Positions 11,517 to 58,517 of a DNA stretch of 64,000 bases are shown here, piece after piece. Position numbers and translations under genes: made by a program. Source of the DNA: Thermoproteota archaeon (GTDB taxonomy: Archaea; Thermoproteota; Thermoprotei; Thermoproteales; Thermocladiaceae). A model generated the notes under the pieces. It was not told the DNA's origin, did no database searches, and worked only from the letters and a program-made list of their open reading frames with translations. The DNA lies in the NCBI GenBank assembly GCA_013153895.1, contig JAADDN010000168.1, positions 17,049 through 81,048 on the forward strand, given 5' to 3'. Within the stretch, counting starts at the first letter, position 1. Every line of letters begins with the position of its first letter.

Positions 11517-11635
11517 GATGATCTCCTTTTTAGTTGTTCATATTCTTCGTCTGTGATTTTTATTATATATTGCTCCTCAATGTTATGCTTTCTTCTTTTT
11601 ATTCTTATCTTTATGTGATGTGGTTGATAGTGTTC

Positions 11636-11660: not shown

Positions 11661-11680
11661 ATTATTTAAGTGTTTCATCT

Positions 11681-11893: not shown

Positions 11894-11924
11894 ATGTTAA
11901 CCTATTTATTAAGGTTTTTAAAAC

Positions 11925-38324: not shown

Positions 38325-38963
38325 ATGCGTATAGTATCTTCAGAACGTAGAGCACTTCTCAGGACTAGGAACAGGGAAAAGATAACTATTTTCAGGAATA
38401 TTAATAGAATGTTTATACCAGTATTGAAGGACAGTTTTAAAATTGTGTTAAAAATAGATAAGAAATATATTGATATTATTGATAGGTTAGATAATTATTG
38501 TATGAAGATTAATGAAGATAGTAAATATATAACATATGAATGTTCTATAGATATTGAAGATGTTCCAACAAGCACCTTAGTAGCAGTAGAGTATAGAGGA
38601 CAGATGGCTATGACTGGAAGAGACCTAGAGAACTTAATAGCAAGCCTCATCATGTTACATCTAGATAATGTTGAGAGAAGTGAACCAAGGTTCAGAAATG
38701 TGGAGTTTCTGAGAGAGGAGAACATTATAAGAAGCGAATTAGCTAGCACGCTAATATTTGAAATATCTATAATAGAGAACTATCTTAAACATGCTTTAAA
38801 GAGCCCTGCAGAGAACTTTAATTATCTTAAAAAGGTAAGTACTGAGCTCCATAACGAGTTTATGAGTCTGTGGGAGAAGTATGGTAACATTCTTAAAAGT
38901 GAATACAGTATAGAGGAGCCTCCATCAAGATCATTCCTAGAGAAGAAGCTCAACGTCTTCTAG
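38325..38963 (+). CDS. Hypothetical protein
   Basis: ATG 1 nt after the previous stop. 212 aa. Confidence 0.75.
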   Translation: MRIVSSERRALLRTRNREKITIFRNINRMFIPVLKDSFKIVLKIDKKYIDIIDRLDNYCMKINEDSKYITYECSIDIEDVPTSTLVAVEYRGQMAMTGRDLENLIASLIMLHLDNVERSEPRFRNVEFLREENIIRSELASTLIFEISIIENYLKHALKSPAENFNYLKKVSTELHNEFMSLWEKYGNILKSEYSIEEPPSRSFLEKKLNVF

Positions 38964-39957
38964 GTCTTAACCTAGCTATCTCCTCTCTATAATATTCTAA
39001 GGATCTTCTAAATCTCTCCCAAGCCTTCCTATAACATGATGCCTTCTCTTCTATAGATATGTTAGGATCCTCAGGTCTTGGACAGCGCACTATCTCTGAG
39101 CTAAATATCATTGCTTCAACTTTTTCATCAGGTGTGAACAGTGTCTGGCAGTATCCTATCTCTTTTAAATATTCTAGGTATTTTCTACCCTTCTCTGTAC
39201 CATATGGTAATGGATATATGCAGTGTCTAGCATATTCATAGTCTAATGCTTCTTCTGGAGTATAGTTCATTCCAATATACTTCTCACCTAGTCTCCTCCT
39301 CTCCTCTACTATGTTTCTCCATAACTCTTCAAGTGTAAGTGGACCATAGATGTCTTCATTGTTTTCCGACTTTCTTATCAATATGTCTGGTGTCTTCTCT
39401 ATCTTTCCAAATGTTGGATCAATCATATATTTGCTACCTGTTACAGGGTTCTGAACTATTAGACTTATATGACTGTAACCTGGTCGGTAGGCTGCTACGG
39501 GTAAGCCAATTCTTTTAAGAACTGTTAACAGTGCTAGACTAAGCTCGCTTGATGATCCTCTCCCAAGTCTAAGCACCTCTCCAGGTGTGAGAAATGTATA
39601 TGCAAGAGAGTTCCAGTATCTTTCAGCGTTGGCATGTATCTCATCATAGTCTAGATATGTTTTGAATAGGTTAACTATCTTTGAAAGATAGTTAACAAAC
39701 TCCTCATCGTTCATGGGAGGGGGACCAGCAAGCTCGATTATTCTCTTGCTAATGGTCTCTGCTATATTGGATCTAGGTACAGTCTCTGTCTCAAACTGTG
39801 ATAGGTCTCTTACTTCTCCTCTAAAGTATCTACACCAGGGACATGGATCGTTGCTTTTCAATTCTGTTCCCATGTAATCGTATAATGGCTGTGCCATATG
39901 GTTAAGATATCTCTCCTCCAGCTTCTCAAGCTCCAGTATTCTCTGGTTTCTGCTCAT
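38950..39957 (-). CDS. Transglutaminase-like (papain-fold) protein with Ser at the nucleophile position
   Basis: GRGSSSELSLALLTVLKRIGLPVAAY...YSHISLIV...YMIDPTFG is collinear with the G-x-C-x-x-F...GIPAR...H-x-W...DPT core, with Ser in place of Cys. Confidence 0.65.
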   Translation of the reverse strand: MSRNQRILELEKLEERYLNHMAQPLYDYMGTELKSNDPCPWCRYFRGEVRDLSQFETETVPRSNIAETISKRIIELAGPPPMNDEEFVNYLSKIVNLFKTYLDYDEIHANAERYWNSLAYTFLTPGEVLRLGRGSSSELSLALLTVLKRIGLPVAAYRPGYSHISLIVQNPVTGSKYMIDPTFGKIEKTPDILIRKSENNEDIYGPLTLEELWRNIVEERRRLGEKYIGMNYTPEEALDYEYARHCIYPLPYGTEKGRKYLEYLKEIGYCQTLFTPDEKVEAMIFSSEIVRCPRPEDPNISIEEKASCYRKAWERFRRSLEYYREEIARLRPRRR

Positions 39958-39996: not shown

Positions 39997-40314
39997 ATGT
40001 ATAGTAAGGTCCTAGCTGAGAAGTCTAGTGTTAGTAGTCTAGTTGTTCCTGATCAGATATTTATGTTTGGTAGTTATATATGTGGTAGAGTGTTTATAAA
40101 TGATGAAGTAGACTTAGAGACATATCAGAGAATAGAGGATGAGATGTATGGTATAGCTGTCCTAGAATCGGACAAGGAGCCTGAGAACAGGGTAAAGGTG
40201 AGAAGCATTGTAACATGTATACGAGGCATAGGTGAGAGAAATCTGAATGATCTAGCTAGGAGTATAGTGATAGCTTACATAAATCTGAGAGATATGTATA
40301 GGATGAGAAGATGA
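39997..40314 (+). CDS. Hypothetical 105-aa protein
   Basis: ATG start. Its stop overlaps the next start (ATGA). Confidence 0.7.
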   Translation: MYSKVLAEKSSVSSLVVPDQIFMFGSYICGRVFINDEVDLETYQRIEDEMYGIAVLESDKEPENRVKVRSIVTCIRGIGERNLNDLARSIVIAYINLRDMYRMRR

Positions 40315-41336
40315 GCCTATCACAGTCTCTTCTAAGGATTGAGGAGGAGCTTAGGAATCTTGCAACAGAGCTGCAGGAGGCTAGGACTGGGAGAGATACA
40401 TATAGTGGGGACAGGTTTCTAGAGGTCTATCATAAGCTTGTAGATGTTAATCTGAAGCTTGAGAGCATCTATAGGACGTGTCTAGAACGTTCAGAGACGG
40501 AGAAGCCGTTACAGCTCTTCTGTAGGTTGATATATAATATATATCTAGGATTGAATGATCTTATACATGACATGAATAAAAATTGTAATGTATCTAATGG
40601 AGTATTTACATGTCTTAATATTAATGTTGAGAAGATTAGAAGAGAACTATGTAACAATGTTCTAGAGCTGACTGGAAGAAAATGCGGTAACCTGATACTC
40701 TATGATACGAGCCTTCAGCCACCAGCAATTATAGATGGCATAGCTAACTGTGTACATGTACTAGCTGAGGAGCTGATGAAGATGGAGACCTGGAGAAGAG
40801 TAGGAAGATGCTACTTGAATGAGAACTCTAGCAGAAGCATTGTAGAGCTCTGTGAGAAGTGGAGCGAGTATATTAACAGGTTCGATCCATATTATATGAG
40901 TGAGGATATTGAGAACGTTTTCGGATATGGTATAGATGGTAAAGCATATTTTAGAGTAGGATCAGCAGCGGGACATGCAGCAAATATAGATTTTAACAGT
41001 GGGACATTCACATATTATGATAATGATCTTAATGTTGTATCTCTAGTACATACATATGTTGAAAAGTATATGAATGGTGCATGCATGTTTAATAGAGAGA
41101 ACAGTGAATTAAAATGTACTATACCGAATATTGATAAGAAGATAGATGATATAGCATATCTCCTAGCATCTGTAACCAGCATGGATATTAGACTAGCAAA
41201 CGCTAATGTAGATGCTAAGAAGCTTATACCGATAAAGATAGCAAAGTCAACATATAACTATGATAGAGAGATAGCATTAGAGAAAGGTCTCGAGAACACT
41301 TCTAGAACATATATAACAGTTCTAGGAGGAGAGTAG
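40311..41336 (+). CDS. Family-A protein, copy 1 (paralog of 43566-44567)
   Basis: Shares TGRxCGNLxLY..S.Q.PAxIDGxANCxHVxAEEL, RVGRC and RVGSxxGHAxxIDF with copy 2. Confidence 0.85.
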   Translation: MSLSQSLLRIEEELRNLATELQEARTGRDTYSGDRFLEVYHKLVDVNLKLESIYRTCLERSETEKPLQLFCRLIYNIYLGLNDLIHDMNKNCNVSNGVFTCLNINVEKIRRELCNNVLELTGRKCGNLILYDTSLQPPAIIDGIANCVHVLAEELMKMETWRRVGRCYLNENSSRSIVELCEKWSEYINRFDPYYMSEDIENVFGYGIDGKAYFRVGSAAGHAANIDFNSGTFTYYDNDLNVVSLVHTYVEKYMNGACMFNRENSELKCTIPNIDKKIDDIAYLLASVTSMDIRLANANVDAKKLIPIKIAKSTYNYDREIALEKGLENTSRTYITVLGGE

Positions 41337-41337
41337 T

Positions 41338-42243
41338 ATGGAGCCGATACATGTTAAAGAAATTATAAACAGGATAGCTGAGACCGTTAGAGACCTCGCT
41401 AGAGTAAAAACATGTTTAACATCTAATAATAGGAGAGAAGAAGTATCATGCCTATTAGACCTATATGAGAGAAGAGATAGACTGCTCGCACTTGTAGATG
41501 ATTTGAAGAAGCTTGCAGTAGCAGCACGGTACTTATATGGTCCAGAGTTCGGATACGTTCTCTACTATGTTAATAATATGGCTAGAGATGTTGACAAGAT
41601 AGTGAAGACGTTGGACTATGAGATAAATAGCTCAACTATAAGAAAGATGCCTACGAGACTTATAGCCCATGAGATAGGTGATGAATTGCAGGAACTAGTT
41701 ATTAACATGGTAGAGCTGGCAGACGTGTTGAGAAGACTTGGAAATGAGGATCTCTACATCTATGGTACATGTATCATACGTGGAGAACCTAGAACAGATC
41801 TGAAAACACGGTACATATGTGCAGGAGGACCTACACCACTTATAGTTGACAGAGATAAGATAGTTACATATGGAATAGACTTCCAGGGAAAAGAATATGC
41901 AGCAGAGCTTAGAGACCATGAGATAAAGCTAGAGTTTGAACTGCCTGTACTAGAGACTGGGAGAGAGTATTACCATGAGATACTTCCAAAAGATATGAAA
42001 TGTGAATCAACTATAGATGAGGAAGCTGGAACGCTAGTATATACATGTAGAGGAACAGTGCCAGATATGAAGGAGATTCTGAAAAATATTGAGCTAGCAA
42101 GAGAGCTTGAATCAATATCTCCACCACATGTAGAGAACATTCTTAGAGACACAATGCTTAGAGGAATGGAGATAGATAAGAACATGCCACTAGACATGAA
42201 CTGGAGAAGAGCACTCAAGCTGTCACTACCATTACCAGGGTAG
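41338..42243 (+). CDS. Family-B protein, copy 1 (paralog of 44564-45418)
   Basis: NEDLYIYGTCIIRGEP compares with NEDLHIYSGCIVRGRP. It holds the same position, right after the family-A gene. Confidence 0.85.
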   Translation: MEPIHVKEIINRIAETVRDLARVKTCLTSNNRREEVSCLLDLYERRDRLLALVDDLKKLAVAARYLYGPEFGYVLYYVNNMARDVDKIVKTLDYEINSSTIRKMPTRLIAHEIGDELQELVINMVELADVLRRLGNEDLYIYGTCIIRGEPRTDLKTRYICAGGPTPLIVDRDKIVTYGIDFQGKEYAAELRDHEIKLEFELPVLETGREYYHEILPKDMKCESTIDEEAGTLVYTCRGTVPDMKEILKNIELARELESISPPHVENILRDTMLRGMEIDKNMPLDMNWRRALKLSLPLPG

Positions 42244-42250
42244 CATCTAG

Positions 42251-42258
42251 TAATAAAT
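42251..42258 (+). promoter_or_regulatory. TATA box inside a shared 14-mer
   Basis: TAATAAAT lies about 25 nt upstream of the ATG at 42279. Confidence 0.5.
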
Positions 42259-42278
42259 CAGATAGATATAGTTAGATC

Positions 42279-43100
42279 ATGAAGAGACCAGTACAGATAC
42301 TTGAGAAACTGTTAGAAAAATATTACAGGTATAGAGAATCTAGACATTGTGAAGAACTTTTCAACAATGTTGAAATATGTATAGAAATAATAGGAGAGCG
42401 GAGAGGAGAGAGAACACTGATAGATAGGGAACATGTTAATGGTAGAGAGATAATATTAAACTATAATGAGCAGATATATACATTAAACATATCTGTTAGA
42501 CATGGAGAAGAGAAGGAAAGCAGAATAATAACAGTTAGAACACTAGTAGCATCAGCACCAGTAAGACTAGAAGGAGACAGGATAATAGATGTAGAGAGTA
42601 ATGGGGAACATATTATCATTTCTCTCTGTGATGATTTTGACAGCGCGGTACTCTCAATAGTTCACTCATTATTATTAAAATGTAAGGATATTGAGGTAAA
42701 GTTAAAATATTATGAGAATCTTATAAACACTATTACAGATCTAGTATATGGTGAAATTGTTAAGAAGATTAATAATAATATTATTGATAGGAGTATAAAG
42801 ATTGGAGACATGGTGATAAGGTTCATATTTACATGTGATGGAGATAGGATACATCTTACAGTGTTTGCGGATGGTAGAGCTATATATGATGAGGATAGTG
42901 TAGATAATCTTAGAGATATGATACGTAGAGCAGTTCATAGATTATTCACATCTTACTATGTTGATGATCTTATCAGCATACTATCCGTGCTGGATCGTGT
43001 GATGTCTATTGAATATGTTAGTAATAGGAGCAGGAGGCTATTGAGAACGCTCTCTAGAATATGTTCATCTATTATCTCCATGTTTTCAGGGAAAATCTAA
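42279..43100 (+). CDS. Hypothetical protein
   Basis: ATG start, 273 aa. Confidence 0.8.
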   Translation: MKRPVQILEKLLEKYYRYRESRHCEELFNNVEICIEIIGERRGERTLIDREHVNGREIILNYNEQIYTLNISVRHGEEKESRIITVRTLVASAPVRLEGDRIIDVESNGEHIIISLCDDFDSAVLSIVHSLLLKCKDIEVKLKYYENLINTITDLVYGEIVKKINNNIIDRSIKIGDMVIRFIFTCDGDRIHLTVFADGRAIYDEDSVDNLRDMIRRAVHRLFTSYYVDDLISILSVLDRVMSIEYVSNRSRRLLRTLSRICSSIISMFSGKI

Positions 43101-43130
43101 CATATTAACCCTCTCTATGATTAGTCTACT

Positions 43131-43535
43131 ATGGGTATAATAAGCAGGTTAATTGATTTTGGCATACTTATCGATCTAGTATATCTCTGCTATATCTATA
43201 GTCAGATAAGTACATTAGCCTTTCTGCTACATGTTGTACTTCTCTTTGCTTTTTCTGCATATCTTGCAATAGATATATCCAGGAAGCATCTTGTCTCTCC
43301 AGTATTCTACTATATTTATGTTCTTACTATAGGTATAGCATGTGGATGTGCTCTTTTTCTAGCTGTTGTTGATCTATATATATCAGTGTATAGTTTCCCG
43401 TTTTATCCTCTTATTCTATCAATGTTGTATATATCTGTTGCTGGTATACTTATAAAAAGCATTTTCAATCTTAAAGTGCTCTCAACCATAATGAGCGAGA
43501 GAAGGAGAAGGAGATACTGGGATCTTAGGGAATAG
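43131..43535 (+). CDS. Multi-pass membrane protein with an RRRRRYWDLRE C-terminus
   Basis: Hydrophobic helices followed by a terminal basic cluster and the YW motif. Confidence 0.8.
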   Translation: MGIISRLIDFGILIDLVYLCYIYSQISTLAFLLHVVLLFAFSAYLAIDISRKHLVSPVFYYIYVLTIGIACGCALFLAVVDLYISVYSFPFYPLILSMLYISVAGILIKSIFNLKVLSTIMSERRRRRYWDLRE

Positions 43536-43565
43536 CTTATCATTTTTCTACCTGCTATATCAAGC

Positions 43566-44567
43566 ATGGAGCTATCTAACATAGTTAGCGAGATGATGAG
43601 GATTGAGGAGGAGCTTAGGAATCTTGCAACAGAGCTGCAGAAGTCCAGGATCGAGAGGAACGAGTATGTTTATGATATTCAGAATGTTAAGAAGGTTTTA
43701 AATAATATATGTGAGAAGCTTAACAAGATTAGTGAGGAGCCGTGTGCGGATATGATATCTAACATATTGAAAAATATGGTAGATCTTGCATATGATTATA
43801 TTTCTACTATATGTAATAGGGAGGATGGTTATTATAAATGCTCCAACATTAGTACAAGAGAATTTAGAAAGTTTATAGAAGAATTTGAGAAAGTTACGGG
43901 TAGAACATGTGGGAACCTTCTACTCTATATGGACTCGGTCCAGCTTCCTGCTGTTATAGATGGACTTGCTAACTGTATACATGTTGCCGCTGAGGAGCTA
44001 GCTAAAATTAACAAACATGGTAGGAGAGTTGGTAGATGCATCATAGTTGGCTATGCTGATCCAAGGATCATAGAGCTATGTAAAAAGTGGACGGATCTTG
44101 TAGAGAAGTATCATAATATGGGTATCTACCTGGAGGAGGATTATAATAGTCTTATAGGTATTGGAAGAGGACTCTCTCTTGATCTACGTGTAGGTTCCTC
44201 TCCTGGACATGCAATGAAGATAGATTTTAAGAATGGTACACTGAAATATTATGATTCTGATATGAATGTTATAGATACTGTACGAGTATTCATAGAGAAG
44301 CATCTAGATGGGTCATGTATGTATGATTATGCGAACCAGGAGCTGACATGTAGGTTCGATCCAGGTGCTGATAAGGTATCTGACAAGCTTGCATGGATTG
44401 CTGCTAATGTTACAAGTCTAGATGTTTACCTTGATGATGAGATTCCCGAATATATGAAGGATAGAGTATCCTCAGCTGCCCGTTCTGTACAGTTGAACTA
44501 TGAGGAGGCTAGTATGAGTATTAGAGAGATGATGGATAAAGCTAGTAGAATGGTGATGCTAATATGA
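43566..44567 (+). CDS. Family-A protein, copy 2
   Basis: See 40311-41336. Contains the 42-nt stretch identical to copy 1. Confidence 0.85.
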   Translation: MELSNIVSEMMRIEEELRNLATELQKSRIERNEYVYDIQNVKKVLNNICEKLNKISEEPCADMISNILKNMVDLAYDYISTICNREDGYYKCSNISTREFRKFIEEFEKVTGRTCGNLLLYMDSVQLPAVIDGLANCIHVAAEELAKINKHGRRVGRCIIVGYADPRIIELCKKWTDLVEKYHNMGIYLEEDYNSLIGIGRGLSLDLRVGSSPGHAMKIDFKNGTLKYYDSDMNVIDTVRVFIEKHLDGSCMYDYANQELTCRFDPGADKVSDKLAWIAANVTSLDVYLDDEIPEYMKDRVSSAARSVQLNYEEASMSIREMMDKASRMVMLI

Positions 44568-45418
44568 GGCTTGTAGATTATCTTAGACAGATTAGGGAGA
44601 AGCTTGAACATATATATGAAACATGTATGAGAGATGTTGAGTCATGTATATTTGAGTATTTTACACTTGCACTTGAGCTGCCTGCGCTGGAAAAGTTGAA
44701 GAATAGTGCATGGTCAATGTATGCTGCTGAGAAGAGAAGGGAGGATAAGTATCTGTACGAGCTATTCAACTCGCTATATACTGGACATCTCCCATCTAGA
44801 TATGCGAGAGATATCTCTTCTAAAGCATCTGCAGAGGCTCTGGCAGAGACTATTAGAGAGATTGTAGAAGATGTTAAGGAACTTGAGAAATATTATGAGA
44901 ATGAGGATCTTCACATCTATTCTGGATGTATAGTGAGGGGTAGACCAGGACCAGAGAAGCTATCTATGATAGGTGCAACATGTGACACATATGGAGGATA
45001 CTATAGTAATAATAGGCTAGTAGCTGCTAATAATGATATAGCTCTCGAGCTAGATACTGAGAATCCTAGAGAGGCAAGATGCTTCTCACTTCATCCTGAG
45101 TATAAAATGTGTGAGAGACTGCTAGTATCTTCAATATCTGACTGTTATAGCAGGAATGGTGAGGTATACTGTACATCTCCTCCATATCACAATCTTGGAT
45201 ATATTTATAGGGCTCTAGATAAGGTGGAAGAGTTTAGGACATTATTATCATCTCTTGTACATACTACACTATATGGTATATATAGTAGAGGATTTGTAGA
45301 GAAGCTGGCAATGGCAGATGCATATACTAGGAAGGAGTTTGAGACTCCTCTAGTAGTTAACATGCGCAGAGAGATCGATAACGCTGCGAGCAGGGTCTTT
45401 GGAGAAAAAAGAGAATAG
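44564..45418 (+). CDS. Family-B protein, copy 2
   Basis: ATGA coupling to the family-A gene. Paralog of 41338-42243. Confidence 0.85.
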   Translation: MRLVDYLRQIREKLEHIYETCMRDVESCIFEYFTLALELPALEKLKNSAWSMYAAEKRREDKYLYELFNSLYTGHLPSRYARDISSKASAEALAETIREIVEDVKELEKYYENEDLHIYSGCIVRGRPGPEKLSMIGATCDTYGGYYSNNRLVAANNDIALELDTENPREARCFSLHPEYKMCERLLVSSISDCYSRNGEVYCTSPPYHNLGYIYRALDKVEEFRTLLSSLVHTTLYGIYSRGFVEKLAMADAYTRKEFETPLVVNMRREIDNAASRVFGEKRE

Positions 45419-45440
45419 GTAGGGTAGAGAAGTCTCTCAC

Positions 45441-46904
45441 ATGTTCGAGCTTGATGGAAAGAGGGTAAGACCTGAACGTAGACGGATGTTTAAAACTCAT
45501 CTTAAAGCGTTAATCCTTATTCTTATTGTTATGATCTGTATATCAATGTTCTTATTATATCATTATGGTATAACAATGACATTATCAAACGTTGATCCCT
45601 GGGTAGTACGCAGCGTGCTATCAGGTGAGAACACTCCTGTATGGGTATACACGTGGATAGGGGCTAAACTGCCGAAGGACTTTATAGTATGGAGGTTCGA
45701 TACTTTTGAGATAGCTGTAGGATATGTACATAGTTTATCAACATTGGAGTATCTTTCAAAACATAGCTGGTATGTTGGAGGACTAGACTACTATATTATC
45801 GCGCCTCCTAGAATGCCAGTATACTTTCCTAGGAGCGATGCATTGAATGCTTCTAGAGTGAACTATCTCGTAAAGATTCATAATCCATATATGGTATATA
45901 ACGGTACTAATGTTACCATAGCTATTCTAGATACAGGAATAGACTATCTTCTCCCAGTATTCTACACTAACTGTCATGTATCTACAAAATATAGTCATAT
46001 AATTGCAATGGTGAGCTTTGTGGATGGTGGCAGAGTATATATATGGAGTAGAAAGTACTGGCTAGAGGGAAAGAACATGTCATTAACAGAATTATATAGT
46101 TGGGAACAGTCAATATATTCTGTATACGGTGTATATCCATTCATGGACATTGTAGGACATGGAACCGCTGTAGCATCAGTAATCGTTGGACAGCCATGTT
46201 ACTATCATGGTTTCAGCGGTGTAGCTCCAGGTGCTAGGATAGTAATGTTGAAGGTCTTTCCAGACAAGTCAACTACAAGTATCATAATACTGATAGAGGC
46301 ATTGCACTGGCTCTACTTTCACTATAAGGAGTATCATATAAAGATAGTTAGCATGAGCTTGAACGCTTTCACACCAAGCTTCGGAACTTTTTCAGATCCA
46401 ATAAACATTATTCTTCAACATCTAGCAGAGAAGGGGCTCATAATCCTAGTAGCCTCAGGAAACGAGGGAAACTTTCCAGGAAGCCTAGACTCTATAGGAA
46501 ATGCTCCTAATGTATATCTTGTAGGTGCTTGGGATCCTATCCACTGGAAGATCGCGTACTTCACCTCTATGCCTACAGTTGGGCAGCATCCTATTAACTT
46601 TCTAGGAGATGGTTACATGGTGTGGAGTGTTGTTCCTAATAGTAGCATGATATTTAGAGCGGTAAGCGAGTATGTTCCATATCTGATAATGGATAAGAAA
46701 CATGGAATGGTCCTTCTCTCAGGAACATCTCTTGCAACTCCTGCTGTTGCTGGAGTAGTAGCAGACTGGTATCAGTGGTATCTAGAACATTATCATCGTG
46801 CTTCTGCTCCTGAGACACTTGTCAGGATAATATGCTCGAGAGGGTACATTACTGGGAGAATACCGCTAATAGTTACATGTGGTCTTGTGAGAGCGCCTAA
46901 ATAG
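45441..46904 (+). CDS. Membrane-anchored subtilisin-like serine protease (S8)
   Basis: N-terminal TM LKALILILIVMICISMFLLY. Catalytic motifs AILDTGIDY (D), HGTAVASVI (H), ASGNEGN (N), SGTSLATPAVAGV (S). Confidence 0.9.
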   Translation: MFELDGKRVRPERRRMFKTHLKALILILIVMICISMFLLYHYGITMTLSNVDPWVVRSVLSGENTPVWVYTWIGAKLPKDFIVWRFDTFEIAVGYVHSLSTLEYLSKHSWYVGGLDYYIIAPPRMPVYFPRSDALNASRVNYLVKIHNPYMVYNGTNVTIAILDTGIDYLLPVFYTNCHVSTKYSHIIAMVSFVDGGRVYIWSRKYWLEGKNMSLTELYSWEQSIYSVYGVYPFMDIVGHGTAVASVIVGQPCYYHGFSGVAPGARIVMLKVFPDKSTTSIIILIEALHWLYFHYKEYHIKIVSMSLNAFTPSFGTFSDPINIILQHLAEKGLIILVASGNEGNFPGSLDSIGNAPNVYLVGAWDPIHWKIAYFTSMPTVGQHPINFLGDGYMVWSVVPNSSMIFRAVSEYVPYLIMDKKHGMVLLSGTSLATPAVAGVVADWYQWYLEHYHRASAPETLVRIICSRGYITGRIPLIVTCGLVRAPK

Positions 46905-46924
46905 GTCCTATAGATATTATACCT

Positions 46925-47710
46925 ATGCTAATGATAGACTACTCTACTAGGATAGTAACCATTTCATCACCATTCTACCAGTTCTTAACATATCATAATC
47001 ACGTACCTGTAGAGAAGGGTGATCACTTGATCATGGTGCCAGCATTCTCACAGTACCGTGCCTCATATAGTGAAGGATTCTACTATCTTCTCGACATGGA
47101 GGAGCTTAAAATAATGAAGGTTGGAGTAGGGATAAGAGAGGTCTTGAATGATCATGATATTATTAGCCTTATGAGAAGGATAGTTAGGCTTCTAGGAATA
47201 GATGTAAGATATGGTGAGAACTATATCTATCTTGGTAGGCGGGCAAGAGTATTTAAATGTCCATTAATGTCAGTATATGCACTAGTTTTCGGCACTTTCA
47301 GACTAGTAGTAGAGCCGTTAGATGTGACTGATAGGATATCTCTTCTAGATCTTCCAGTTCTTGTTCAGTATGGTCCATATATGGTATATATTGATGAGGG
47401 ACGTATAATACCTATACCAGATAACTCAAATATTTACCATATAGTTAAGATAGGTAAGATAGATATCAACTATATTGGTCTTGATTCAACATTTAGAGTA
47501 TATAATCACTGTAGGCTGATACGTTCTCATGATGTGATTATTCTACGTACATGGAGGAGAGATATTGTTAAGCTATTGTCAGGTTATGTATGTAGGATAG
47601 TGAATATAGGTGATCAATATTTCCTATATTTTAACAAGGATATAGATGTTGAACGGATAGTACAGTCAGCATCTGCAGGACATATTGCTGATAAGATTGA
47701 CCTGTTATAA
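46925..47710 (+). CDS. Hypothetical protein
   Basis: ATG start, 261 aa. Confidence 0.8.
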   Translation: MLMIDYSTRIVTISSPFYQFLTYHNHVPVEKGDHLIMVPAFSQYRASYSEGFYYLLDMEELKIMKVGVGIREVLNDHDIISLMRRIVRLLGIDVRYGENYIYLGRRARVFKCPLMSVYALVFGTFRLVVEPLDVTDRISLLDLPVLVQYGPYMVYIDEGRIIPIPDNSNIYHIVKIGKIDINYIGLDSTFRVYNHCRLIRSHDVIILRTWRRDIVKLLSGYVCRIVNIGDQYFLYFNKDIDVERIVQSASAGHIADKIDLL

Positions 47711-47715
47711 TAATG

Positions 47716-47723
47716 TTTAAATT
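47716..47723 (+). promoter_or_regulatory. TATA box
   Basis: TTTAAATT centred about 25 nt upstream of the ATG at 47745. Confidence 0.5.
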
Positions 47724-47744
47724 TTTATTACAGGGAAGATACCT

Positions 47745-48032
47745 ATGGCAGAGGAGGCAGGAAAGGTAGAGATCACGGAATCAATAATATCTAAGACGCT
47801 GAGAATAATTAGAACACCAACATTTATAGCTGGTGTGGCGTTCATGCTACTTGGACTAGTATGCATGTTTGCGTTCCCAGCAATGTTTGGTCCTTTCGGT
47901 GTGCTACTTGGTATACTATGTATGACATTTCTAGAAGGTATTGCAATAGTGTTCTATGTGCTCACTGCTAAATATGTTGGCACGGTATTCAGGAGAAAGA
48001 GAACTTACAAGTATTGGGATAGTAGAGAATAA
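47745..48032 (+). CDS. 2-TM membrane protein with an RRKRTYKYWDSRE C-terminus
   Basis: Two hydrophobic helices followed by the terminal motif. Confidence 0.8.
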   Translation: MAEEAGKVEITESIISKTLRIIRTPTFIAGVAFMLLGLVCMFAFPAMFGPFGVLLGILCMTFLEGIAIVFYVLTAKYVGTVFRRKRTYKYWDSRE

Positions 48033-48057
48033 TTATATAGTTCTAACCTAGGTCTAT

Positions 48058-48065
48058 TTTTAAAT
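48058..48065 (+). promoter_or_regulatory. TATA box
   Basis: TTTTAAAT centred about 25 nt upstream of the ATG at 48086. Confidence 0.5.
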
Positions 48066-48085
48066 CCATTCTTCTCAGATCTATC

Positions 48086-49795
48086 ATGGACTGGGTTCTC
48101 AGACTATTAGAAGAATGTTACATATATAGGTACTCTACTATAGGTATAGTAGAGACAGGAGATCTGCGTCATAGTATTATTATACTCTTAAAGAAGTGTG
48201 TAAACATTAGAGATGCATTCAAGGATAGTGATGTTCCACTTCCTGAGAGAGTGATCTTCTACTCTGGTACGCAGCTATATGAGCCATATGTTGAGGAGGG
48301 GAGGATAAAGCTTAGAAAGATAAGTCTTGGGGAAGAGAACATATTTCAGAGTGGTGATGATAATATTGTTACACCATTACAGGCACTGTCATATTATAGG
48401 AAGCTTGTATATGAGGAAGGTAGGATACTTATGATATTTTCACTCTATGGCTTTCCTAGAGACAGCATAGTGACTCTCTATCCAATGATCTCTGAGATAA
48501 TTGCTGACCCTAGCCTACAGTATCAGCGTTCTGGATCTATGCTCATATTTATTGTTGATGATAGGGAGAAGCTTGCTCCCTTCATTGGGAACAGTATCCA
48601 TGTTCATGATGAGGTAAGTGATGATGAGATTAGAAGTATAGTTACTAGGTTTAGAGCGAAAATGTCTAAATATGGTTATAGTATAGATGTCTCTGATGAT
48701 AAGATAATTGAATTGTTAAGAGGGTTAGAGTATAAAGATGTTGAGAACATTATTGCAAAGATTGGACAGAAAATGAAGAGTCTTAAACCTGAAGAAGCCA
48801 AAAAGCTCAATATTATCCATGAGATTATAAGTGAGCGTAATAGGATAATCATACAGCAGCTACCGTGTCTAGAACCTATCGAGCCGAAACATGGGTTTGA
48901 AGCAGTGGGAGGATATAGCGATGTTAAGGAGATTGTTCGGAGAACATTTATCAATATATGGAAGCATAGGGACCTGGCTAGAAGTCTAGGAGCAGAGCTT
49001 CCTAAAGGAATGCTCCTCTTCGGTATACGTGGCACGGGTAAGACATGGTTTGTAAAGTGTATGGCTAAGGAGCTTGATCTGCCAATGTATAGGTTCATTA
49101 TAGAGAGCGTGAAGAGTAAATGGTATGGTGAGAGCGAGAGAGCTCTTAGACATGTTTTCAAGATGTTGAGGAAGATACAGCCAGTAATACTCTTCATAGA
49201 TGAGATAGATAAACTGATGACAGAGAGAGGAGGACAGCAGGAGCATGAGGTTTCTAGAGCTCTGAAGAATATTATTCTAGAGGAGATGAGTGAGAAGGAT
49301 GATATAATTCTTATATGTACAACAAACTTTCCTGAACAGCTTGACAAGGCTTTCCTACGTGCTGGACGTATCGATATTAAGCTACCATTCCTATTGCCAG
49401 ATTATGATGCTAGGAGACAGATCCTTGAGATACATACGAGAGTAGTAAGAAAGGTTCCTCTTGACAGGGATGTAAACCTAGACGAGCTAGCTAGAAAGAC
49501 CAGTGGATGGACTGGTGCAGAGATCGAGCAGCTTGTTAAGGAAGCTATAATATATGCGTTAGATGAGGCTGTTAGACGCGGTATAAAGAGGATGAAGGTA
49601 GGTATGAGACATTTCGAGGAGGCGTATAATAATATTGTTGTTGACCGTAAGACACGTGCAGCAGAGCTTGACAGGTTTGTAAACATTGCAAAATCATTGA
49701 CAAGCCATAGAGAGGTGATCAGATATGTAGAGAAGCAGAAGAACATGGTTACAAGCGAGATATCTATAGTAGAGGACAAGACAATATTCCTATAA
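48086..49795 (+). CDS. Classical-clade AAA+ ATPase (CDC48/FtsH/Ycf46-like module) with a unique 270-aa N-terminal region
   Basis: Walker A GIRGTGKT, GESE, Walker B ILFIDEIDKL, sensor-1 CTTN, arginine fingers LRAGRID, TGAEIEQL. Confidence 0.9.
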   Translation: MDWVLRLLEECYIYRYSTIGIVETGDLRHSIIILLKKCVNIRDAFKDSDVPLPERVIFYSGTQLYEPYVEEGRIKLRKISLGEENIFQSGDDNIVTPLQALSYYRKLVYEEGRILMIFSLYGFPRDSIVTLYPMISEIIADPSLQYQRSGSMLIFIVDDREKLAPFIGNSIHVHDEVSDDEIRSIVTRFRAKMSKYGYSIDVSDDKIIELLRGLEYKDVENIIAKIGQKMKSLKPEEAKKLNIIHEIISERNRIIIQQLPCLEPIEPKHGFEAVGGYSDVKEIVRRTFINIWKHRDLARSLGAELPKGMLLFGIRGTGKTWFVKCMAKELDLPMYRFIIESVKSKWYGESERALRHVFKMLRKIQPVILFIDEIDKLMTERGGQQEHEVSRALKNIILEEMSEKDDIILICTTNFPEQLDKAFLRAGRIDIKLPFLLPDYDARRQILEIHTRVVRKVPLDRDVNLDELARKTSGWTGAEIEQLVKEAIIYALDEAVRRGIKRMKVGMRHFEEAYNNIVVDRKTRAAELDRFVNIAKSLTSHREVIRYVEKQKNMVTSEISIVEDKTIFL

Positions 49796-49830
49796 CCTAT
49801 CAATTATATACCCTATAAAACATATCAATC

Positions 49831-50112
49831 ATGGATAAGAGAGATATAGTCCTAAATGATATATCTGAAAGACTTGTAAGCTATATTCTAGCTAACTGGA
49901 GAAGATATGCATATCTAGACAATTCTAACTGTATAAACATGCCGCTTACCAGGATAGCTAAAGAAGTTGTTAATGAGAGAGTTGACAGAGCAACACTTGG
50001 ACAGGCATATTCAAAGGTGAGGGAAAGATTCAGGAAGATGGGTTATAGGGTAGTACTGAAGAGGAGGTGGGCTAAGAATGGTTCTACCTGGATAGAGATA
50101 TGTAGGGACTAG
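49831..50112 (+). CDS. Small basic protein, possibly winged-helix
   Basis: ATG start, 93 aa. LTRIAKEVVNERVDRATLGQAYSKVRERFRKMGY looks HTH-like. Confidence 0.65.
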   Translation: MDKRDIVLNDISERLVSYILANWRRYAYLDNSNCINMPLTRIAKEVVNERVDRATLGQAYSKVRERFRKMGYRVVLKRRWAKNGSTWIEICRD

Positions 50113-51998
50113 CTTAGAACTGTCTTTCTTCTCCTGCTCATGAACTCTGCTCTTCTTCCAGGGTTCCAGTTGCTTATTGGTCTATAGTATCCGACTATTC
50201 TATCCCACTTCTCTATGTTTCTGCTACCACAGTTTGGACATTCATCATATATTCCTGTTAGTACTGTCCAACAGTTTCTACATATTGACTGTACTGGCTT
50301 ATATGCTATATATGGTATGTACGTGCTTCTACATATTTCTGTGACTAGTTTAGCAACTTTCTCAGCTTCTAGATACATTGGTGCATGGATAAACATTACA
50401 TAGCCACCATCGTAGAGCGGCTTGTTCATGAATCTGGGTCTGCATAGCTCGTTCTCTATCCATACCTTCTCCTCTAGTGGGTATATACTATAGTATGGTA
50501 CTGTCTGTGAACTATAGTATAGTTCTATTCTACCTGTCTCTGGATCAACATCACGTGGAATAAACATAAGCATCTTAGGATGATATTCAGCGTCCATCAT
50601 TGCAAGCTTGATAGAAGCCTCCTCAGCAGGTGCCTGCTCTAGATTATATAGTACCTGGTCAGCCTCGGCAAACTCTCTCAACCTCTTCTTAACATGTTCT
50701 AGAACCTTGACAGCATAGTAGACCATCTCCTTTTTAACGTTCCTATCAGGTATGTTCCATGCAGAGTAGAATGGTATGCTGTTGATCTCTGGCAGACCTG
50801 TCCTAGCTAGCTTCATTGTCTCAGAGTCATCATGATTTAGAAGATACATGATTGACATATACTCAGCTATTCCAATAGTAGCAACAGTGTTAAAATATGT
50901 TCTAAACGGGTTAGAGAGCCTATACGGATCATTTAACAGCCATGCAGTAGTCGGGTACAGACCCATCTTATAGAAGTCCAAGTATCTTCTTTTCAGATAC
51001 ATTAACGCGTTTCTACATGTCTCCAATATATCGTCTAGCATTGGAATTATCTTCTCGGGCTCTCCCCTAGATAGCCAGGCTAGTCTAGGCATGTTGATCC
51101 CTATATATCCTATAGATCCTGTAAGTATGACCCATCTCCCAGTCACTGGCACATGCTTCAATATTTCTTGTACATCTATCCTCAATCTACAGCAGAAACT
51201 TAGCGCCTCACCAGGCTCTGAAACGTTTGGATTCATGAAGTAGAATGTTCCTCTCCTAGCTATCAGCTCCCAGAACATTTCCCATAGATCATGCTCTCTC
51301 AGAATCTTGAGAAAGAAGTCTGTAAGATAGACCGAGGGTATTGGAAAGGTTAGCGGTCTTCCATGTGCGTCTCCTCTCATGAAGCTTCTAATAGTCTCTC
51401 CCATGTACTTCACTGCGTTATCTATCATTTCTATTCCTGTACCAATCTTCTTACCACATTTATATACTTCTAATTCTTTTAGAGGTTTCTCACCCATAGA
51501 TATTCCATATATCTCGTTTATGAACATTGACTGGCTGACATATCTACTAGGCTTGTTAACATTATAATGGTAGAACTCTACCATCTGTCTCAGCTCTCTA
51601 TCATCTGTTATGTATGGTGCTGCTGCAATATCAAGATAGTTTAATCCTACTGCTCCTGTACGTTCTTGTGTGAGGTATAGCGCTATATCTAATACATGGT
51701 TCATAAATACTGTACCATATTTAGCACATCTATATGTTAGGCATGTAGTCTCGATCAGTTCTCTCTTACCTATCTCAGTAGCGTTGAACCCTCCGCAGTA
51801 TGGTTCCATCCATCCTCCTGAACGTATCTTAAAAGTATATAATGTTCCTGTTATCTCATATCTATACCATTTATCGTTTATTTTAGCTATTGTTGGAAGA
51901 ATATGATTCTCCCATAGACACCTCTCCTCTAATCCTACTAGAATAGATACTGCTGTTGGCGGTATGTTCGCGTTCCTCTTTATAAGATACTCATCCAT
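50109..51998 (-). CDS. nrdD: Anaerobic (class III) ribonucleoside-triphosphate reductase
   Basis: C-terminal Zn ribbon CRNC...CPNCGS followed by the glycyl-radical motif RIVGYYRPISNWNPGRRAEF. 629 aa. Confidence 0.85.
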   Translation of the reverse strand: MDEYLIKRNANIPPTAVSILVGLEERCLWENHILPTIAKINDKWYRYEITGTLYTFKIRSGGWMEPYCGGFNATEIGKRELIETTCLTYRCAKYGTVFMNHVLDIALYLTQERTGAVGLNYLDIAAAPYITDDRELRQMVEFYHYNVNKPSRYVSQSMFINEIYGISMGEKPLKELEVYKCGKKIGTGIEMIDNAVKYMGETIRSFMRGDAHGRPLTFPIPSVYLTDFFLKILREHDLWEMFWELIARRGTFYFMNPNVSEPGEALSFCCRLRIDVQEILKHVPVTGRWVILTGSIGYIGINMPRLAWLSRGEPEKIIPMLDDILETCRNALMYLKRRYLDFYKMGLYPTTAWLLNDPYRLSNPFRTYFNTVATIGIAEYMSIMYLLNHDDSETMKLARTGLPEINSIPFYSAWNIPDRNVKKEMVYYAVKVLEHVKKRLREFAEADQVLYNLEQAPAEEASIKLAMMDAEYHPKMLMFIPRDVDPETGRIELYYSSQTVPYYSIYPLEEKVWIENELCRPRFMNKPLYDGGYVMFIHAPMYLEAEKVAKLVTEICRSTYIPYIAYKPVQSICRNCWTVLTGIYDECPNCGSRNIEKWDRIVGYYRPISNWNPGRRAEFMSRRRKTVLS

Positions 51999-52055
51999 GT
52001 GTTTATAATAGGTTATGCGATATTAAAGCGGGATCTATGATGGTTAAGTGAGTAG

Positions 52056-52063
52056 TTTATATA
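52056..52063 (+). promoter_or_regulatory. TATA box
   Basis: TTTATATA centred 27 nt upstream of the ATG at 52087. Confidence 0.5.
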
Positions 52064-52086
52064 CCCTAACACTCATCTACGGTAAC

Positions 52087-53268
52087 ATGAGTTCGAAAGT
52101 TGTTGAGAAAGAGAAGAAGACACGGGCACGGGCTAGAATAAGGGTGAAGAAGAGTAATGATGTTATTGCTAAGATTCTGGATGTAGCCTTTCCTGTAGGT
52201 GATATCCAGCTTGACCATAGTATAGAGGTACGCTCAGTATATCATCTATATGAGATGATGAAGCGTGGAGTAATATACATTGATCCAGATCTCCAGCGTG
52301 GATACGTATGGGATGATGTTAAGGCTAGCCTCTTCATCGATAGTCTCTATCGTGGATATCCTGTCCATATGATACTCCTAGCCAGGCTAGGTAAAGATAG
52401 GTACACTGTGATAGATGGTGTACAGAGACTAGTAACTATTAGAAGGTTCTTCGATAACGAGCTCAGAATACTGAAAGTATCTGTAATCCATCCAGATATA
52501 CGTGGAAGAAGCTTCTCATCGCTTAAACATGATATCCGTGAGAAGTTTGTTACCTCTATATCCATGCCCGTATGCTTTATAAATCTTGGCAATCTAGATG
52601 AGAAGGCTATATCTGTAATAACAGATATGCTGCGTAGAGTAAACATTAGTGAGCAGAAGATGACTACAATGCAGGTAATATTCTGTACATTTAAGACACC
52701 TAGTATACAGCTTATAAAGAGAATGTCAGAATATGAGAACTATAGAAAACTTCTAAAGTTCACTGAAAGTGAGATAAAGGCAATGTATGATAAGGTTCTT
52801 CTAATGAACCTTGCAATATCTGTACATAGTGGAAAGGTAGTATACTTACAGGGATACTGTTTCAGGTCAAGCATGCCATACTTCTCAAAGTTCATACTGG
52901 AGAACGATGAGAAGAAGCTTAGAGATGTTGAACAGTGGATAAAAGATATTATAGATACATGTATAGAGCTTGGACTAGAGAGGAAACATTTCACCACATC
53001 CTACTATGGTCTCTCACGTGCTATGAGAGAGGTAGTGTCGAAGTGGATCTTCACTGCTATAACGGTAGCATTGTTCAGACTGTTACGTGAACATGATAGG
53101 GAGGAGGTTATAAAGAGGAGGGAGGAGCTTGTTAGAGCTATCGAGGACTATTTCAGGAATATTGACAAGACATTATATGTACATGTTCTACGTGCATCAT
53201 CTATAGATCATATAGCTAAGATAGTTGATGGTCTGTACATGAGGTTAGAATCTGTTTTCAAGTCATAA
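52087..53268 (+). CDS. DUF262 (ParB-like/GmrSD N-terminal type) protein without a recognisable nuclease domain
   Basis: IDPDLQRGYVWDDVKASLFIDSLYRGYPV...YTVIDGVQRLVTIRRFF matches the DUF262 signature. The track ORF begins at GTG 52048, and I prefer the ATG at 52087 given the TATA position. Confidence 0.8.
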   Translation: MSSKVVEKEKKTRARARIRVKKSNDVIAKILDVAFPVGDIQLDHSIEVRSVYHLYEMMKRGVIYIDPDLQRGYVWDDVKASLFIDSLYRGYPVHMILLARLGKDRYTVIDGVQRLVTIRRFFDNELRILKVSVIHPDIRGRSFSSLKHDIREKFVTSISMPVCFINLGNLDEKAISVITDMLRRVNISEQKMTTMQVIFCTFKTPSIQLIKRMSEYENYRKLLKFTESEIKAMYDKVLLMNLAISVHSGKVVYLQGYCFRSSMPYFSKFILENDEKKLRDVEQWIKDIIDTCIELGLERKHFTTSYYGLSRAMREVVSKWIFTAITVALFRLLREHDREEVIKRREELVRAIEDYFRNIDKTLYVHVLRASSIDHIAKIVDGLYMRLESVFKS

Positions 53269-54358: not shown

Positions 54359-54977
54359 GGGATATTCTGGTCCTGGTATAGACTTATCATATCAATATGC
54401 TAGTAGTCTAGTCCAGAGATGTCTCAGTCTTCTCTCAAGTCTGGAGACTGGCAAGGTCATAGATGTCTCTACTATACTAGGAGAAGTGCGTATACTCCTC
54501 TCTAGGCTTAGATCTTCACTATTTATCTCTGATGTATATATTGGTAAGATGAGTGATACGAGGTTTGAATATATTATGAAGAAGCTTGAAGACCTTAACA
54601 ATAATATAAACATTGCACTGGAACACTTGGATAGAAAGGATATTCCATCACTTAGAGCAAAACTCTATGAGATAGATCGCGACTTATTACTATATTATCA
54701 AGCGCTCTCGCTTATAGGTAGACCAGCAGCGGCACGTAATGTAGACAGTGTGATTATAGGCATGGCAGAGCTCCCTGAGGAGACTGATAGAATGGTTCCA
54801 GAGTATGCTAAGCCTGTCCTAGCATATATACAGTCCAGGAAGAGGGTAACCATGAGAGAGCTTGTTAGAAGGTTTGGAAATGCTGTGATAGATATTTTAG
54901 AGGATCTTAAACGGCTAGGACTGATACGTTCTGGAGTAGATAAAAGGGGAGAGGTAATCTATCTCATACCCCAGTAA
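54324..54977 (+). CDS. Protein with a C-terminal winged-helix domain
   Basis: ATG one codon after the track TTG. VLAYIQSRKRVTMRELVRRFGNAVIDILEDLKRLGLIRSG. Confidence 0.7.
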   Translation: MPGEKKRKEESEGYSGPGIDLSYQYASSLVQRCLSLLSSLETGKVIDVSTILGEVRILLSRLRSSLFISDVYIGKMSDTRFEYIMKKLEDLNNNINIALEHLDRKDIPSLRAKLYEIDRDLLLYYQALSLIGRPAAARNVDSVIIGMAELPEETDRMVPEYAKPVLAYIQSRKRVTMRELVRRFGNAVIDILEDLKRLGLIRSGVDKRGEVIYLIPQ

Positions 54978-55330
54978 GCTCTTCCAAGCTTTCTTGCAAG
55001 AACCCTATTTATAGTCTCTGTCACTTTGTCTGGCATATTTATTGGGAGCTGTATCTCCTCTTCCATACTGTTCATAATACTGTTAAAAAGTTCCTCGACC
55101 TCGTTCCATACTCTATCAATCTTACGGTATATCCTGTCCATTATCCTGCTCATCTCCTCGAGCTGTATCTGCCTGAAAACCTCCTTCTTTATTTCCTCAA
55201 CAAGCTCCCTCTTCTCCTCAGGGCTCAGCTTCTTCAGCTTCTCTAGAAGCTCCCTATCCGTCGAGACTACTGTTACACGTGTATTACCATTCTTCTCTAC
55301 GATTTTTATTCCAAAAATGCTCGCATCCAT
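54959..55330 (-). CDS. Coiled-coil protein ending GRAYWGMR
   Basis: The track ORF starts at TTG 55372. I prefer the ATG at 55330 (MDASIFGIKIV...). Confidence 0.65.
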   Translation of the reverse strand: MDASIFGIKIVEKNGNTRVTVVSTDRELLEKLKKLSPEEKRELVEEIKKEVFRQIQLEEMSRIMDRIYRKIDRVWNEVEELFNSIMNSMEEEIQLPINMPDKVTETINRVLARKLGRAYWGMR

Positions 55331-55371
55331 ATATGAAACATCTTTTAACAGGAATATAATTATTTCCACCA

Positions 55372-58516: not shown

Positions 58517-58517
58517 C

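Follow-up and report, generated by a model that had tools for sequence, protein, structure and literature searches.

The locus described here raises the question of what a closely packed set of genes, two of whose protein families resemble nothing named, does for the element that encodes it. The genes occupy positions 39997-50112 of a 64-kb stretch of contig JAADDN010000168.1, assigned to a Thermoproteota archaeon (the whole stretch is referred to below as the window), where 12 open reading frames (ORFs) follow one another on the + strand, from p105 to p93. A preliminary description of this DNA had noted two protein families, A and B, small transmembrane (TM) proteins with a Tyr-Trp (YW) tail, a membrane subtilase and an AAA+ ATPase. 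Our analysis finds a conserved core of four parts: the family A protein; B, its translationally coupled partner; a 4-TM protein ending in [RK]YW[DE]x[RK]E; and an N-terminally anchored subtilase whose active domain is predicted to lie outside the membrane. In the window, the A-B pair of this core is duplicated, and another membrane protein with a tail tag and an AAA+ unfoldase resembling Cdc48 D2 are encoded downstream. Tentatively, and with less than even confidence, we read the cluster as a membrane assembly or egress module of a virus-like element of hyperthermophilic Thermoproteota, in which A/B, the AAA+ protein or both would read short tags on the element's membrane proteins.

The coordinates, strand and lengths of the 12 ORFs match the preliminary description, and its statement that the genes are all on the + strand and closely spaced is confirmed. 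The stop codon of p105 (39997-40314), which encodes a small soluble protein, overlaps the start of A1 (40311-41336) by 4 nucleotides (nt; ATGA), and only 1 nt separates A1 from B1 (41338-42243). A second ATGA overlap of 4 nt joins the stop of A2 (43566-44567) to the start of B2 (44564-45418), and the remaining gaps in the cluster measure 20-53 nt. Between the two A-B pairs lie p273 (42279-43100) and TM134 (43131-43535). Downstream of B2 come the genes for the S8 subtilase (45441-46904), the soluble protein p261 (46925-47710), TM95 (47745-48032), the AAA+ protein (48086-49795) and p93 (49831-50112), a small basic protein without a family match that ends the run. The view of this run as two duplicated five-gene modules was correct in part: the A-B pair and the tail motif are duplicated, but the 273- and 261-amino acid (aa) ORFs show no similarity to each other, and TM134 and TM95, with about four and two TM helices, have in common only their 7-13 C-terminal residues (RRYWDLRE and KYWDSRE). 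No family was found for p105, p273, p261 or the TM proteins in Pfam, PHROGs, NCBIfam, PADLOC or PDB sequences beyond matches of coiled-coil composition. Hydrophobic segments are absent from p105, A, B, p273, p261 and the AAA+ protein.

Judging by its sequence relationships, family A is real, new and so far without a name. A1 and its paralogue A2 are 41% identical over 294 aa (E 9e-70), and both are recovered by the family hidden Markov model (E 1.5e-88 and 6.6e-90, the latter for A2). A HMMER search over 1.84 billion cluster representatives returned 235 relatives at E<=1e-3, of which 90 reached E<=1e-30. An alignment of 60 members gave no relevant Pfam family; the family has no Pfam, NCBIfam, PHROG or PADLOC match, and its profile detected only coiled-coil noise among PDB sequences. 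Searches of IMG/VR, PLSDB plasmids and the phage and archaeal-virus records of GenBank did not detect the family, and neither it nor the cluster is described in the literature searched. Members run from about 300 to 620 aa and begin with a helix bearing the signature ExxLRxLATxxQ, followed by a helical stalk of about 100 to 330 residues and a head rich in conserved motifs. In A1 numbering these are G..C125, NDxAxC147xH149, GKC167, C181xxW184, RVGSxxGH222, YYD237xD239xxVN, C258...GVxC269 and TS290MD292xR294. A1 and A2 carry nearly all of them (e.g., IDGxANCxH for NDxAxCxH), and C125, C147, H149, C167, C181, H222, D237, D239, S290, D292 and R294 are near-invariant across the 60 sequences, which are 20-30% identical.

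An AlphaFold2 model of A1, built from the 60-sequence alignment, was confident (predicted local distance difference test (pLDDT) 89.6, predicted template modelling score (pTM) 0.81). It shows three long helices and then a mixed alpha/beta domain; A1 can be described as a conserved N-terminal helix, a three-helix stalk and an alpha/beta head in which Cys, His and Asp are conserved. A capsid fold for A had been suggested as something to look for; the search of this model with Foldseek returned neither a capsid nor any other known fold, with no match at E<=1e-3 in PDB or BFVD and best TM-scores of about 0.15-0.25. The weak top matches to DHH phosphoesterases (E ~0.1-0.2, TM-score ~0.15) are noise, and the order of the motifs does not fit that family. 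A MIM-like reading of the N-terminal helix was also rejected for poor motif fit.

In family B, B1 and B2 are weak paralogues, with 27% identity over 106 aa (E 1e-7) and about 25% in the family alignment, and the family had no match in Pfam, PHROGs, NCBIfam, PADLOC or PDB sequences. The AlphaFold2 model, made from a two-sequence alignment, was poor (pLDDT 57, C-terminal half <50), and Foldseek returned only generic four-helix-bundle matches for it, none at E<=1e-3. The earlier observation that A and B match nothing recognizable holds in all these libraries, as do those that both are Cys-rich (11, 10, 6 and 8 cysteines) and that their N-terminal halves are helical, the latter according to the predicted models. 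Profile comparisons of A with B gave probabilities of 1.6%, 22.6% and 75.9% over at most 30 columns. The last of these, between an A clade and the B family (hhalign, E 2.3e-5, only 23 columns), pairs 'EL.K..rvGrCii' of A with 'l..eDl.iyG.CIi.G' of B at an equivalent position. Both families also have a late Cys-x10-12-Cys hairpin, and B keeps the cysteine framework of A without its polar motifs. B is possibly a degenerate paralogue of A, which we regard as a lead. In several lineages the A and B genes overlap or abut, which is consistent with coupled translation and 1:1 production of the two proteins.

These features bear on a different account of the pair, in which A-B would be a heterodimeric enzyme, A active and B degenerate, that works on a soluble substrate such as nucleic acid, a nucleotide or a host protein, and the membrane genes would be adjacent through shared timing only. 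The near-invariant Cys, His, Asp, Ser and Arg residues of A speak for it, as does the loss of the polar motifs from an otherwise retained cysteine framework in B, and family A also occurs in distant elements without B, S8 or YW tails, beside replication genes such as Prim-Pol. On the other hand, the match of A and B to enzyme families unrelated to assembly, which the preliminary description had named as evidence against its own proposal, did not appear: there was no similarity to any enzyme family by sequence, and the fold of A is unmatched. The conserved N-terminal helix and coiled-coil stalk are typical of structural or tethering proteins, and two or three tandem paralogues per element would be unusual for an enzyme. 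We hold an enzymatic A-B pair to be unlikely.

Comparison with related loci (numbered L001 onwards) supports a functional link among the cluster genes. In close relatives (A 47-49% identical), a - strand transglutaminase-like gene precedes p105, A and B, after which come a 157-aa ORF, a TM protein with the ending RRRRYWELRE and the beginning of a second A gene. Both L001 and L004 have retained p105 ahead of A (E 1e-43 to 1e-45), and L001 has an additional A'-B' pair upstream. No match to p273 was found in the related loci, where the 157-aa ORF takes its place; p273 is thus a variable filler gene, not conserved in relatives. In the more distant L016 (A 35% identical), the genes downstream of A encode a 324-aa member of the B family, a TM protein of 131 aa with the ending RKTKYWELKE and, beyond a small - strand ORF, a 496-aa subtilase, which is 47% identical to the S8 protein of the window (E 5.8e-155) and has the same N-terminal anchor. 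The orthologues of TM134 end in RRRRYWELRE in L002 and L004 and in KTKYWELKE in L016 (E 4e-55 and 3e-31). It is this retention of A, a B-like gene, the YW-tailed TM gene and S8 in L016, together with that of p105-A-B-x-TM(YW)-A2 in the closer contigs, that argues for the link.

The TM proteins themselves are joined by their tails. Topology was predicted from hydropathy and the positive-inside rule, which places the YW tails and a second motif, RKMF, in the cytoplasm and the S8 domain outside the membrane. TM134 would thus expose RRRRRYWDLRE to the cytosol from about four TM helices, and TM95 would expose RRKRTYKYWDSRE from two. Among all ORFs of the window, [RK]YW..[RK] occurs four times, each at the C-terminus of a membrane protein: TM134, TM95, the 96-aa, 2-TM protein TM96 encoded outside the cluster (60128-60418, + strand; tail KYRKYWSYRE...) and an Rce1/CPBP-like membrane protease (57983-58555, - strand; ending SNRYWTLRL). 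Looser copies are found near the C-terminus of a polytopic membrane protein (RYWRFE; 56535-57107, - strand) and at the end of a soluble coiled-coil protein (GRAYWGMR; 54959-55372, - strand). In total, 6 of the 82 non-overlapping ORFs have YW within their last 20 residues against 0.86 expected, a number reached in 2 of 5000 per-protein shuffles, and five of the six are membrane proteins. The tail codons differ between copies and the peptide is kept, so that selection acts on the peptide.

The second motif, [RK][RK]MF[KN], is found exactly three times in all ORFs of the window, each time next to a TM helix at a predicted cytosolic site. As R[RK]MF[KN], it lies at the N-terminus of the S8 subtilase (45441-45500) and in the tails of two surface proteins. 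One is an 881-aa protein (4803-7448, - strand; tail KRRKMFKQT at 4803-4830) with a signal peptide, a CarboxypepD_reg domain and a C-terminal TM helix; the other is a 225-aa type I membrane protein (55853-56530, - strand; tail SRKSRKMFNFS at 55853-55880). Candidate tag peptides of the element are RRRRRYWDLRE, RKRTYKYWDSRE, KRRKMFKQT and the N-terminus of S8. The subtilase of L016 carries RYW in its predicted cytosolic N-terminal segment. Other clades follow the same theme with different tails: in L010 and L011, from a distant high-GC clade, an 85-aa TM protein with a basic cluster and an aromatic tail ending ...EAEWVW is encoded just upstream of A, and on the 204.6-kb contig Ga0190369_1000001 type I membrane proteins end in RRRR...(T)E(F/L)(V/A). 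A reading of the YW tail as the YxxxD/E signal of type VII secretion was discarded, as the spacing does not fit.

The predicted topology also decides which proteins could meet. With the protease outside and A, B and the tails in the cytoplasm, S8 would be unable to cut A, B or the YW tails inside the cell, and the AAA+ protein, A and B could all reach the tails. This is where the earlier proposal of a morphogenesis, secretion or envelope-remodelling system has to be divided. Its premise that the genes are functionally linked is supported by synteny and such a role is plausible, but its suggestion that the protease acts on the A/B proteins or on the tail-tagged membrane proteins is opposed, as regards A, B and the tails, by the predicted topology.

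The same small TM proteins and tethered protease could also be arranged as a lysis or egress cassette, in which the TM proteins are holin-like, the outward-facing subtilase serves as a signal-arrest-release (SAR)-type lysin that cuts the S-layer, and A/B and the AAA+ protein are regulators or unrelated neighbours. Holins are small, with 1-4 TM helices and charged C-termini. TM95 and TM96 (two TM helices, both ends inside) and TM134 (about four), at 95-134 aa and with basic tails, look similar, and, as in phage holin/SAR-endolysin cassettes, they have charged cytosolic C-termini and lie beside a membrane-tethered, wall-facing hydrolase. S8 combines an N-terminal signal anchor with an intact triad and a catalytic domain that is predicted to be external, and its gene remains a neighbour of the TM(YW) gene in L016. 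However, there is no sequence relation to those cassettes and no holin or lysin family match in PHROGs or Pfam, and the hydrolase of the window is a protease, whose target would have to be the S-layer; no archaeal viral protease that degrades the S-layer was found in the literature searched. Nor would a holin role explain YW tails on the CPBP-like protease, the polytopic protein and the soluble protein, and the conserved, coupled A-B pair is left unaccounted for. We consider a lysis cassette improbable. Small TM proteins such as TM95 also recall VP1 and VP3, the major capsid proteins of fuselloviruses, in their length of about 90 aa, their pair of hydrophobic helices and a short C-terminal tail of basic and aromatic residues (AYKIYKD in SSV7, TYKYWDSRE in the window), but phmmer gave only 1-2 bits against SSV7 VP1/VP3, and a Rad3-like helicase alone is common to the window and SSV7. 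Kinship with fuselloviruses was rejected on these grounds.

S8 and the AAA+ protein belong, by their profile scores, to known superfamilies, and both stay below the thresholds of the CDC48, IetA, IetS, mycosin and EccA models. That S8 is a TM-anchored protease, as first described, is borne out by a PF00082 score of 98 bits against a cut-off of 21.8 (E 7.9e-28), by the triad and oxyanion Asn (D164 in DTGID, H240 in GHGT, N341 in GNEG and S430 in GTSLATP) and by the N-terminal signal anchor, whose predicted cytosolic N-terminus carries RRRMFK. Its identity to anything named is about 25%. The S8 fold, the D/H/S triad, the oxyanion Asn and the membrane tether with a catalytic domain predicted to lie outside are also features of membrane-anchored subtilases such as Tk-SP-like S8 proteases and mycosins. 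The S8 protein of the window differs in being anchored N-terminally, in its cytosolic RRRMFK and in being encoded on a virus-like element beside A and B. Mycosins are anchored at the C-terminus, unlike the protein described here.

The AAA+ protein has a single classical module (residues 309-512; PF00004 110.8 bits, AAA_lid_3 49.9 bits) with a Walker A motif (GIRGTGKT), a Walker B motif (FIDEID), a W-Y-G pore loop (KWYG) and Arg fingers (RAGRID). Its best PDB matches are VAT and the Cdc48 D2 domain (E 5e-74). It resembles Cdc48/VAT in the AAA and AAA_lid_3 module, the Walker motifs, the aromatic pore loop and the Arg fingers, and differs in having one AAA domain, aligned to D2, rather than two, and in lacking the Cdc48 N-domain; against the CDC48/VAT family model TIGR01243 it scored 177.9 bits, with a cut-off of 802.65. 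The preliminary description had given the protein a novel N-domain of 270 aa; the stretch with no match in family libraries or PDB sequences runs from residue 1 to about 200. The closest viral relative is A525 of Acidianus tailed spindle virus (ATSV), with 31.5% identity over residues 208-557 (E 4e-37); the function of A525 itself is unknown. Neither S8 nor the AAA+ protein was found in IMG/VR. HbYX tails dock archaeal unfoldases onto the 20S proteasome, and the ...TIFL end of the AAA+ protein was considered as such a tail; the resemblance is loose and the motif fit poor.

A subtilase and an AAA+ protein in one neighbourhood are also the domain types of the IetAS anti-phage system, and the two genes could be a defence or counter-defence pair of that kind with the others as passengers. 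PADLOC matched the AAA+ protein to IetA (best E 3.8e-35) and S8 to IetS (E 1.7e-6) and to its 'subtilase' model (E 3.6e-14). NCBIfam added IteA_antiphage (E 4.1e-31), and the window also carries a GmrSD_N protein. The IetA match, however, covers the generic AAA module only and is lower than that to CDC48 (177.9 bits), the score for the IteA model NF042959 is 108.5 bits against a cut-off of 510, and the IetS match amounts to 24.7 bits over 105 core residues. In addition, two genes separate S8 from the AAA+ gene, and the synteny seen for S8 is with A-B-TM. A membrane-anchored protease with a predicted extracytoplasmic domain fits badly with a cytoplasmic ATPase partner. An IetAS-like pair is very unlikely in our view. 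We regard as less credible still a type VII secretion system (T7SS)-like export route in which A and B are helical substrates, the subtilase acts like a mycosin and the AAA+ protein is an EccA-like chaperone. The best NCBIfam match of S8 is indeed a T7SS mycosin (E 5.5e-16), the AAA+ protein has a weak EccA match, and the A and B genes stand in tandem and encode proteins with a helical bundle at the N-terminus. But these scores are far below the cut-offs (58.6 against 278.75 bits for mycosin, 16.3 against 466.65 bits for EccA), no FtsK-like EccC or EccD-type channel was found in the cluster, T7SS is bacterial, and A and B lack signal sequences as well as WXG and YxxxD/E motifs.

The remainder of the contig, 90,945 bp in all, gives the setting of the cluster. 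A1 is identical to GXO26_08235 on it, and in the JGI record of the contig, Ga0072504_101352, the window occupies positions 17383-81382. The window consists mostly of ORFans, most of its proteins have no Pfam family, and no tRNA, no rRNA or other Rfam match and no recognizable housekeeping gene was found in its 64 kb. The genes that could be recognized encode a Rad3/XPD-like helicase, DEAD-box helicases, a TFB zinc-ribbon protein, a nucleotidyltransferase, a dCTP-deaminase-like protein, the anaerobic ribonucleotide reductase NrdD, the GmrSD_N/DUF262 protein and the Rce1-like protease; virus-like information and nucleotide genes lie at 10656-13532, 22134-22640 and 50109-53268. A resolvase and a T4-RNA-ligase-like protein are encoded just outside the window on the same contig. 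Among GenBank phage and archaeal-virus records, the nearest relatives are fusellovirus helicases for the Rad3-like helicase, rudivirus proteins for the TFB-like protein and ATSV A525 for the AAA+ protein. Given the dominance of ORFans, the lack of tRNA and rRNA and these crenarchaeal virus relatives, we interpret the contig as a large mobile element of virus-like character rather than as a chromosome. Kinship with the large tailed spindle viruses was dismissed, the AAA+ protein being all that is shared with ATSV.

An ordinary chromosomal host operon for cell-envelope biogenesis or quality control would be the contrary reading. NCBI files the contig as a metagenome-assembled genome (MAG) of a Crenarchaeota archaeon, one family A member comes from an Infirmifilum sp. 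MAG, and membrane subtilases and Cdc48-like ATPases are common in cells. The gene content just described does not suit a chromosome, with its absence of tRNA, rRNA and housekeeping genes over 64 kb and with integrase, resolvase, Prim-Pol and virus-like helicases as neighbours of the family. Moreover, two pattern scans of 185,579 GTDB species representatives did not find family A, yet eight loci in JGI metagenomes were recovered with almost identical patterns, one of them shared with those scans and the other displaced by one residue. The chance that this is a host operon seems to us very small.

Based on these observations, we return to the proposal that the cluster is a membrane assembly or egress module of a virus-like element. 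The element would mark its own membrane proteins by short cytosolic tags: at least five would bear the YW tail, and the subtilase and two surface proteins would bear R[RK]MF[KN]. The readers of these tags would be A-B complexes in the cytosol, the N-domain of the AAA+ protein or both, and they would gather the tagged proteins at the membrane of the host, or remodel them there, to build a virion envelope, a coat or an exit structure. The AAA+ protein would supply ATP-driven unfolding or extraction. The subtilase, outside the membrane, would either cleave the S-layer or process the ectodomains of surface proteins that the element encodes. As the element looks viral or mobile, a part in morphogenesis or in the remodelling of an envelope is plausible.

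Several points weigh against this proposal. The invariant polar residues of A (H149, D199, H222, D237, D239, S290, D292 and R294) look, from their conservation, more like an active or metal site than like parts of a scaffold. In the window we recognized neither a capsid protein nor a packaging ATPase nor any other hallmark of a virion, and the contig is absent from IMG/VR. TATA-like boxes lie in the short gaps, about 27 nt upstream of several start codons, so that some cluster genes may have promoters of their own and independent transcription would be allowed. The AAA+ gene is linked to the cluster only in this window, since the related contigs end before its position. Finally, the distant A loci that were examined lack B, S8 and YW tails, and the system may therefore be clade-specific.

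The distant A genes have ORFan-rich surroundings, are often present as two or three paralogous copies and stand beside integrase, Prim-Pol or MoxR and VWA genes. An integrase adjoins A in L006, and L005 combines two A copies with MoxR and VWA genes and a transposase. L023 (the Infirmifilum sp. MAG contig JBMFJP010000001.1, 65.8 kb) encodes a ribbon-helix-helix protein and an 879-aa Prim-Pol near its A genes, which at 7274-12833 are three tandem paralogues (583, 622 and 587 aa), each with a long coiled-coil stalk, directly after the Prim-Pol. In L019 and L020 a downstream gene again overlaps A, yet it does not match the B profile. At the other end of A in L020, the gene that overlaps its start (3505-4083) encodes a 192-aa protein in which an HTH...D stretch looks JAB/MPN-like and DUF4329 is matched below threshold; it is unrelated to p105 of the window. 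Contig Ga0190369_1000001 holds two A genes about 87 kb apart (L007 and L008) and has GmrSD_N, an AAA+ protein with lid_3 and giant CarboxypepD_reg surface proteins in common with the window. It also carries a PAPS reductase, and it may be a very large relative of the window element. Many of its ORFs end in ...[RK]x[VI]x[VI].

Some features of the window lie outside the cluster. The gene divergent to it (38950-39957, - strand) encodes a 335-aa transglutaminase-like protein whose orthologues adjoin p105-A-B in L001 and L004 (E 1e-158). The L004 orthologue matches PF01841 with 23.8 bits against a cut-off of 23 and has the active-site pattern GICGE...SH...D; the window copy has no Pfam match and reads GSSSE, with Ser replacing the presumed nucleophile Cys. 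Between 18400 and 21900, about 3.4 kb are ORF-poor and AT-rich (GC down to 0.29) with a mirrored composition: the left side has A/C-rich ACAAAAACA-type repeats and the right side T/G-rich ones, with a palindrome at 20279-20356 and a repeated TACATTAGGGG element in both orientations. This may be a replication origin or a regulatory region. A further 3.7 kb (1110-4798) contain no ORF >=90 aa and only weak repeats, and could be non-coding RNA, decayed genes or very small genes.

What this cluster means for archaeal viruses depends on how much of the proposal holds. On the evidence of the comparisons made here, the libraries and literature searched contain no described equivalent of A, of B, of the TM134 family or of the tail tags; the system would thus be new as a whole, and the function given to it is a proposal. 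Family A is widespread in geothermal metagenomes and could be used as a marker for a group of elements that seem to escape the pipelines for virus detection, given that IMG/VR, the GenBank phage and archaeal-virus records and the GTDB representative genomes did not yield it, a potential that follows from its wide distribution, its lack of a name and a confident model without a relative in the two structure libraries searched. It is conceivable, though rather unlikely, that the window belongs to a so far unrecognized lineage of viruses or virus-like elements, large ones of 91 to >200 kb, in hyperthermophilic Thermoproteota. Their sorting and assembly machinery, not seen before, would consist of cytosolic tags ([RK]YWxx[RK]E tails and R[RK]MF[KN]), A/B as tag-reading adaptor or matrix, and a dedicated Cdc48-like unfoldase and an outward-facing subtilase that complete the envelope or exit structure. 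Only for a handful of model viruses is it known how the membranes, coats and exit structures of archaeal viruses are put together, and to our knowledge a system that sorts viral membrane proteins by cytosolic tail tags has not been described in archaea. If the proposal is true, the pairings to look at would be those of the tail peptide with the AAA+ N-domain or A/B and of the subtilase with the S-layer, and they could reveal a new way in which AAA+ proteins are recruited to membrane proteins.

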